Shown: positions 3,152 through 3,848 of the stretch, piece after piece
Layout of the letters: the number at the start of each line of letters is the position of its first letter
Position numbering within the stretch: position 1 is the stretch's first letter
From: Octopus vulgaris
Lineage: Eukaryota
Assembly (NCBI GenBank): GCA_951406725.2
Contig: OX597832.1
Span: 53,258,001 to 53,322,000 of the forward strand
Length of the DNA stretch: 64,000 nt
Direction: 5' to 3'
Notes under the pieces: model-generated
The model's database searches: none
The model's input: the letters and a program-made list of their open reading frames with translations, nothing else
What the model was told of the DNA's origin: nothing
Program-made: the position numbers and the translations under genes

Positions 3152-3848
3152 TTAACCCCTTTTGTTACCATATTTCTGCTGAAATACACTGCCTTTGTTT
3201 CAATATATTCTGAAAATAATGAACAATTTTAACAAAATCTGTCGTACAAGGTTGGTGTTTGGGAATGTAAATCAGCAGGAAATTTTGGTGGAAAGTTTTT
3301 TCTCCATGTCACTAACCCTTTCATTACCTTTTTTATTTTGGGATGCTCTGTGTTTCTTTCAATTATTTAAAATATAACAAAGAATTTAGTCAAATAACTT
3401 AGTTATCATTAAGCTAACGTTAGGAACATAAATTGTGACTAAGATTTGGTGGAAGATTTTAATTCAAAACTAATGAAAACAAGATGTTTGTACTCAGAGC
3501 CAGAGCCGGTTTCAGCCGGGTTGGTACCGAGAGGGTTAAGCTACCTTTCAGAGAGAATGATTTATTACAGACATGACAGTGATAGGGTTTCTCTCTTGTG
3601 TGAATACGTTTGTGTTTACATAAGTTACATCTTTCAGAAAATGATTTACCACAAATATCACAGTGATATGGCTTGTCTCCTGTATGTGACTAAGGTTTGA
3701 TGGAAGATTTTAATTCAAAACCTATTAAAACAAAACATTTGTACTAGAGCCAGAGCCGGTTTCAGCCGGGTTGGTAATGAAAGGGTTAGAACAAGAAGCT
3801 TGTAGAACCCAGTGCAGTCTCAGACAAGCTGGTATCAAAAACGATTAA
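3152..3848. mobile_element. Nested TTAA/piggyBac-type MITE cluster: outer copy interrupted by a composite inner element (3316-3785)
   Basis: TTAA-CCC...TTACC left ends at 3152 and 3316, GGT...AGGG right ends at 3535 and 3785, and a decayed right end near 3845. The internal sequence matches the copies at 15177, 32329 and 37777. Confidence 0.8.
3537..3686 (-). pseudogene. C2H2 (Kruppel-type) zinc-finger gene fragment, about 1.7 fingers
   Basis: The minus strand translates without a stop as [50 protein letters not shown]: one complete C-x2-C-x12-H-x3-H finger with two TGEKP-like linkers, and no start codon. Confidence 0.9.

Follow-up and report, generated by a model that had tools for sequence, protein, structure and literature searches.

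A probable piggyBac-type MITE composite with a C2H2 zinc-finger fragment in an intron of an FMR1-like gene of Octopus vulgaris

The closest described counterparts of the locus analysed here are the single-copy Pack-TIRs of animals, in which non-TE DNA lies between the two ends of one TIR element (PMC8277862). According to the text of that survey, the inserts have a median length of 224 bp, the microhomology has a median of 2 bp, and multicopy cases amount to four (1.4%) overall and to 3 of 23 in a frog whose elements are active. The plain TE occupies the orthologous site in outgroups in 91 of 97 primate cases. Pack-MULEs and Ssk-FB4 likewise carry a gene fragment between the ends of TIR elements; they exist in several copies at distinct target sites and have long TIRs and duplications of 9-10 bp (PMC8277862). 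In the end-bypass of P elements (3' transduction), the element and its downstream flank go together, and its own end and target site come to lie inside the product; the survey itself states that this class was possibly missed in animals (PMC8277862). Among the features of piggyBac elements are TIRs of about 12-19 bp with the start C[C/A/T][C/A/T][T/G/A][T/A/G][T/G/A] (PMC5381638). The words piggyBac, octopus and mollus- are absent from the main text of PMC8277862, the supplements of which may hold piggyBac or finger-derived cases. No capture of a zinc finger by a cephalopod MITE was found in the literature, judged by titles and abstract openings. How the C2H2 genes of cephalopods multiplied is an open question (PMC12513265); one study considered whether transposon load and the duplication of finger genes are linked and did not favour this view (PMC10547256).

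The locus lies in a 64-kb window (the whole stretch of O. vulgaris DNA that was analysed), and its features are listed in Table 1. It begins with the left portion of an old MITE, after which come CTAA, a complete MITE (A1), TTAA, 145 nt of non-MITE DNA, the right half of a second MITE (A2), TTAG and, finally, the right portion of the same old MITE. The original prediction of a complete MITE followed by TTAA, zinc-finger DNA and a second right half is borne out by this arrangement, as are the stop-free finger stretch (50 codons on the minus strand, 3686-3537) and the nesting in an older related MITE, the right part of which is a weak match by itself.

Table 1. Coordinates of the composite, its surroundings and the nearby exons of the putative host gene.
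Feature	Position	Strand	Remarks
Older related TTAA-type MITE, left part	3152..3311	+	opens with TTAA 3152-3155; broken by the composite; matches the copy at 15177 (68.7% over 143 nt, E 8e-14)
Left target-site copy	3312..3315	+	window: CTAA; organisms A and C: TTAA
A1, full-length 220-nt piggyBac-type MITE (putative)	3316..3535	+	own TIRs match at 10/13
Internal TTAA	3536..3539	+	copy of the MITE target site, also part of the Leu-Thr codons in the cut finger
C2H2 zinc-finger piece	3540..3686	-	linker, one complete finger, linker, second finger ending at its Leu before the His pair; non-MITE 145 nt is 3540-3684
A2, second MITE right half, 101 nt	3685..3785	+	TG overlap with the finger piece at 3685-3686; 89.1% to the right part of A1
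Right target-site copy TTAG	3786..3789	+	contig of X2 covers 3762-3919 without difference; X2 may be the source of the window
Older MITE, right part	3790..3848	+	ends with TTAA 3845-3848; by itself a weak match (77.8% over 27 nt, E 0.11)
FMR1/FXR-like coding exon, 97 nt	3891..3987	-	phase-0 end, GTAAGT donor at 3890; composite lies 101 nt away
53-nt exon	27075-27023	-	canonical splice sites, phase fits exon 3891-3987; likely precedes it, intron ~23 kb
76-codon open frame	3459..3689	-	finger piece plus 25 MITE-derived codons; stop 3461-3459

Several traits are shared with the single-copy animal Pack-TIRs (PMC8277862): the insert of 145 nt (100-5000 bp were required in the survey) lies between two whole termini (at least 10 bp each were required), the microhomology comprises 2 nt, the source is coding, and the insert is found in a host gene in sense orientation. 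The composite differs in that it keeps an internal TIR and TTAA and duplicates about 100 nt, whereas Pack-TIRs show a small loss of TE. As a parent, the survey accepted a unique copy of at least 90% identity; here, the window holds none, and the best protein reaches 72.5%. Furthermore, parents with a TE at 100 bp or less were dropped from the survey (PMC8277862), and the model favoured below places a MITE beside the parent, so that the parent would not pass. Judged by its structure, the composite works like a single-copy Pack-TIR and is a candidate member of this class. It resembles the P-element end-bypass (PMC8277862) in that an element and its downstream flank are found together, with an end and a target site inside the product. 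In that system a chance downstream sequence serves as the TIR, whereas here a true second MITE half would have been reached by a template switch. On the favoured reading, the composite would keep the donor end and target site and belong to the class that the animal survey may have missed (PMC8277862). Unlike Pack-MULEs and Ssk-FB4, it is known in one copy.

A1 shares 84-86% identity with three further copies within the 64 kb (at 15177, 32329 and 37777; E-values between 5e-71 and 2e-63). The copies of this family, four of which are present at full length in the 64 kb, comprise 218-221 nt. Their TIRs are 13 nt long, start with CCCTTT and match at 9-13 of the 13 positions. TTAA is present on both sides of all three outside copies; the composite has on its left TTAA (organisms A and C) or CTAA (window), and on its right TTAG. 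The family is dispersed, as 166-243 contigs per sequencing run continue into unlike sequence past the right end. The MITE therefore fits the piggyBac features of target site, TIR, and short non-coding dispersed copies. It resembles the non-autonomous piggyBac elements (PMC5381638) in its TTAA target copies and 13-nt TIRs starting with CCCTTT, and has no transposase within the element. From its ends alone, it can be assigned putatively to the piggyBac superfamily; TTAA-CCC is also readable as a TA duplication with ACCC ends. A DNA pattern of the MITE end gave three matches in metagenome contigs, all of them chance (19-22 nt), and none in viral contigs. A pattern of an inner motif had no match in prokaryote genomes, and Rfam had none for 2900-4200.

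The four full copies and the older relative at 3156 all have the same orientation in the window. The left TTAA of the copy at 15177 (15173-15176) also belongs to a GGG-TTAA end that lies before it, which suggests that one target site holds two stacked elements. A second family of short elements with ends of the TTAA-CCC type is found at 7123-7373, 11912-12126, 15771-15995, 30578-30787, 37431-37674 and 41580-41794, the membership of 37431-37674 being judged by its ends only.

The joints of the composite were compared with contigs of independent sequencing runs. The best four of the 24 runs listed for 3515-3710 were used (X1-X4; four organisms, four studies), in which 57, 50, 36 and 21% of 14 sampled words of this stretch are present. 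Contigs were aligned to 3000-4100 at 88% likeness, and the results refer to the 32 listed pieces of 60,296. X1 is from organism A and X3 from organism C; X2 is nearly identical to the window. A joint was counted as bridged if at least 31 letters were aligned on both sides. The joint between MITE and finger is bridged in two of the four studies, by X1 (3499-3603, one difference) and X4 (3501-3605, three differences), each in 105 nt. The contigs of the locus differ from the window by 1-5.5% in these runs (X1: 6 in ~303 and 10 in ~181; X4: 2 in 181 and 9 in ~333). Because the joint is bridged and the flanks are diverged in X1 and X4, it is older than those splits and is not an assembly chimera. 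The joint at 3685 between the finger piece and A2 is bridged by none of the 32 pieces listed and is known from the window alone. The outer joints are crossed by contigs of X1 and X3 on the left and of X2, X3 and X4 on the right, with 22-25 letters on the MITE side, which is below the 31-letter rule.

In X1 (depth 24.7) and X3 (depth 11.8), one contig each has TT inserted behind 3312, so that the left flank reads TTAA. Positions 3233-3303 are without cover in X2 and X4, as are 3074-3110 in X1; the state of the left flank was thus read in X1 and X3. CTAA is likely the result of a later 2-nt deletion from TTAA in the window. The CTAA/TTAG flanks of the original prediction are therefore correct as letters of the window, whereas their symmetry is likely an accident of this deletion. 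A CTAG target or a TA-type duplication was rejected as an explanation of these flanks, since organisms A and C have the TT. The second joint had been proposed to run through a shared TGTG(A). With typical fingers, the overlap is TG, i.e. 2 nt and not 4-5: in the read consensus, paralogous fingers align up to 3686 and then continue as finger, and the register of the neighbouring second finger in the window gives the same result. It would reach 4-5 nt if the donor had an unusual codon, Thr or Ser, at this place.

The depth of the contig spanning the MITE/finger joint is 10.2 in X4, compared to 6.1 and 7.2 for the flanks, and 171.9 in X1, compared to 87.1 and 24.7. Depth is no copy number; the contigs of the locus in X3 alone span 6.0-11.8, a twofold spread. 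A large amplification is thus not indicated, and the depth in X1 is a weak hint of extra copies. A pattern of the junction had no match in metagenome contigs. An 822-nt contig of X1 matches 3160-3340 only and continues for ~640 nt that are unlike the window, starting from the left TIR of the older MITE. It represents either a rearrangement beside this TIR or a second locus with nested structure.

The finger piece is recognised by two Pfam families above their curated cut-offs (zf-C2H2, PF00096, E 1.9e-8; zf-H2C2_2, PF13465, E 6.9e-12) and has a period of 84 nt. It is the sole true finger sequence in the 64 kb; the other of two pattern matches is of low complexity and has no linker. The best of 120 re-aligned proteins (from 211 matches) is from Octopus vulgaris and is 72.5% identical over 51 aa. 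Protein searches are weak for repeat proteins, and this match supports an octopus origin of the piece without pointing to the donor. No parent of the piece was found in the 64-kb window. A functional C2H2 gene has a start, at least two complete C-x2-C-x12-H-x3-H fingers and its own stop; the finger frame falls short of this, contains one complete finger and is directly preceded by a stop. An open frame as a sign of selection was rejected, because 50 open codons are expected without it: between 55 and 84% of simulated copies stayed open at 11 to 3% substitution (substitutions only, no indels).

In all four runs, the summed read depth over the finger piece at 3629-3702 is of about the same order as that of the MITE, which means that finger DNA nearly identical to it is extremely abundant. 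In the consensus built from reads of paralogous fingers, a TTAA lies 168 nt (2 x 84) away from the internal one in four of four runs. TTAA is therefore what these fingers normally have at their Leu-Thr codons. The overlap of the internal TTAA with the Leu codon is present as predicted; as a pointer to a donor MITE within a zinc-finger gene it loses its force, since TTAA belongs to the finger consensus. A finger TTAA is an obvious piggyBac target and equally provides 4-5 nt of microhomology with a MITE end. That fingers hold the piggyBac target at a fixed codon is a lead worth noting.

The right part of A1 (3434-3535) and A2 (3685-3785) are 89.1% identical, and the other nine pairs among the five right parts, including those of A2 with the three outside copies, fall between 84.5 and 90.1%. 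About six private changes are found in each of the two halves. Two characters, a gap at 3494/3495 and a C at 3506, are common to both halves and distinguish them from all three outside copies. Five other long pieces align across 3494 with no gap against the window, and 3506 is absent from the listed variant rows (17 further rows exist), so that both characters look like variants common in the family. A tree of the five right parts has no supported branch, and the halves are not a supported pair. Under a local duplication with a uniform event time and 5-7 changes per lineage, the chance of zero shared private changes is 0.18-0.32, and that of at most one is 0.35-0.58. The outer TIRs (left end of A1 and end of A2) match at 13 of 13 positions; A1's own match at 10, and those of the other copies at 9, 11 and 12. 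The argument from the TIRs is weak, because both matching changes are CpG decay and the other copies match at 9-12 positions. The comparison of private changes leans modestly towards an origin of the halves from two different copies.

The reading that we favour tentatively, and which may well be right, is that the composite was made once and in place, by the repair of a break, in which a second MITE within a zinc-finger array served as template before the ends were rejoined. A piggyBac-type MITE would have inserted at TTAA or TTAG within the older MITE in the intron of the FMR1-like gene, and another family member would have sat in the TTAA at the Leu-Thr codons of a finger. When the resident MITE broke, its left end would have invaded the donor by homology and copied the donor's right part, running on past the donor TIR and TTAA to a point 145 nt inside the finger array. 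The new strand would then have rejoined the resident right half via the 2-nt TG overlap, leaving ~100 nt duplicated. A1 is thus likely a mosaic of a resident left part and a donor right part. The product is common to the runs of other organisms, as seen for the MITE/finger joint, and has likely decayed neutrally since. Capture by read-through of a MITE end and a template switch, as originally proposed, fits the anatomy, and the halves behave as two copies.

Repair in place agrees with the finding that the halves are no closer to each other than other pairs, with the perfect outer TIRs, and with the junction depth of X4, which is within the twofold spread. It is preferred over a transposed unit because of the priors from PMC8277862, namely the few multicopy cases, the plain TE at orthologous sites and the median microhomology of 2 bp; the sequence alone cannot separate the two. 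Other figures of the same survey stand against this prior. Gap-filled Pack-TIRs lose a median of 4.6% of the TE, whereas ~100 nt were gained here, and the parent lies within 15 kb in 56.9% of cases (PMC8277862), whereas none is present in the window, which extends for 3.3 kb to the left. The two characters common to the halves, which fit a local duplication, and the junction depth of X1, which could mean further copies, also count against repair in place, and no plain MITE at this site was seen in an outgroup. On balance, the composite is real and old, and likely single and inert.

The alternative that survives best is in our view rather unlikely. It states that the composite was built in a zinc-finger cluster, from which a piggyBac transposase, using the outer ends, carried it to the present site; it may then have other copies. 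In the cluster, a deletion between two MITEs in direct orientation would have fused finger DNA to the right half of the second one, or the repair would have taken place there. Such a unit would explain the single outer pair of target sites with TTAA restored on the left, the perfect outer TIRs and the two-copy behaviour of the halves. The junction depth of X1 is 2-7 times that of the flanking contigs, the 822-nt contig, being unlike the window beyond 3160-3340, could be a second locus, and the multicopy Pack-TIRs of the frog provide a precedent. However, no second copy is present in the window or among the listed pieces, the MITE-derived tail of the open frame is absent from all 40 protein candidates and covered by none of ten near-length matches, and the depth in X4 is near that of a single locus. 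The 822-nt contig has the variants of the X3 contig, the left flank of X3 is orthologous, and a local rearrangement explains it equally. This is the mobile composite of the original prediction, in which it was also regarded as a possible route for dispersing zinc-finger modules. Both claims are left without support: neither a donor locus nor a second composite was found in the 64-kb window, the protein searches or the listed run pieces, the outer ends and target site equally fit a plain resident MITE, and multicopy cases are few in the survey (PMC8277862).

It is unlikely that the composite arose by local re-replication, in which a fork would have left the right end of the resident MITE, switched to a finger at GTTAA, copied 145 nt and returned via TG about 100 nt upstream. 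No donor MITE is needed for this. The structure is described most plainly as a tandem duplication with a templated insert, and GTTAA is common to the finger consensus and to the MITE end with its target site. The gap and the C common to the right part of A1 and A2 also speak for it. In contrast, halves generated in this way should resemble each other more than unrelated copies do, which is not observed; given the calculated chance of zero shared changes, this is a modest argument only.

The composite begins 101 nt into the intron that follows the exon at 3891-3987, and its finger piece is in sense orientation to the gene. This exon matches the Pfam family Tudor_FRX1 with an E-value of 0.0045, which is below the curated cut-off, and its only PDB match is FXR1 (E 0.58). 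The 53-nt exon is presumably similar to FMR1 as well. The label FMR1 for the host gene is thus supported but weakly scored. A motif scan of 1-3890 found no next downstream exon of the gene. An AG at 3691-3690 within A2 is in frame with the phase-0 exon and opens directly on the finger frame, and AATAAA is found at 3337. The equivalent AG is present in A1 and in the copy at 15177 and is absent in the copies at 32329 and 37777. The tract of this candidate acceptor contains 6 T in 20 positions, whereas those of the two host exons contain 11 and 16, and those of two competing sites upstream 10; of the 16 AG sites found from 3880 to 3500, six share the finger frame. No RNA data set is among those listed for 3515-3710, which speaks neither for nor against expression. 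No protein with the MITE-derived tail (frame region 35-76) was found among the 40 candidates from proteins of 134-2000 aa, a range that includes an FMR1-finger fusion, and none of the ten matches of the near-length search exceeds 67% coverage. An in-frame cassette exon ending at the strongest internal donors (3649, 3628 and 3544) was rejected, because these have phase 1 and the host exon has phase 0; weaker donors of phase 0 are found at 3572 and 3527. For comparison, six of ten transcribed human Pack-TIRs are parts of retained introns (PMC8277862). A real FMR1-finger isoform is unlikely as far as these signals can tell, and the composite would have no protein role and be, at most, part of an intronic RNA.

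It is very doubtful that MITEs repeatedly capture fingers via the TTAA of the 84-nt unit, that the composite is multicopy and moved as a unit, and that the acceptor in A2 links the finger in frame to the first Tudor exons and so gives rise to a Tudor-zinc-finger isoform of FMR1. If this were true, MITEs would be a vector of finger shuffling in the C2H2 expansion of cephalopods; being multicopy or spliced into FMR1 would make the composite matter much more. An assembly chimera of two very abundant repeats is extremely improbable for the composite as a whole, for although MITE and finger are both high in copy number, no listed piece bridges the joint at 3685 and the outer joints have few MITE-side letters, the MITE/finger joint is bridged in two studies diverged from the window, both outer joints are crossed in two and three runs, respectively, and 36-57% of the sampled words of 3515-3710 are present in three studies.

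Elsewhere in the window, a local duplication of ~700 nt with 85-91% identity (57185-57911 and 60453-61077) and three tandem arrays (38970-39896, 49391-49968 and 55446-56067) were observed.
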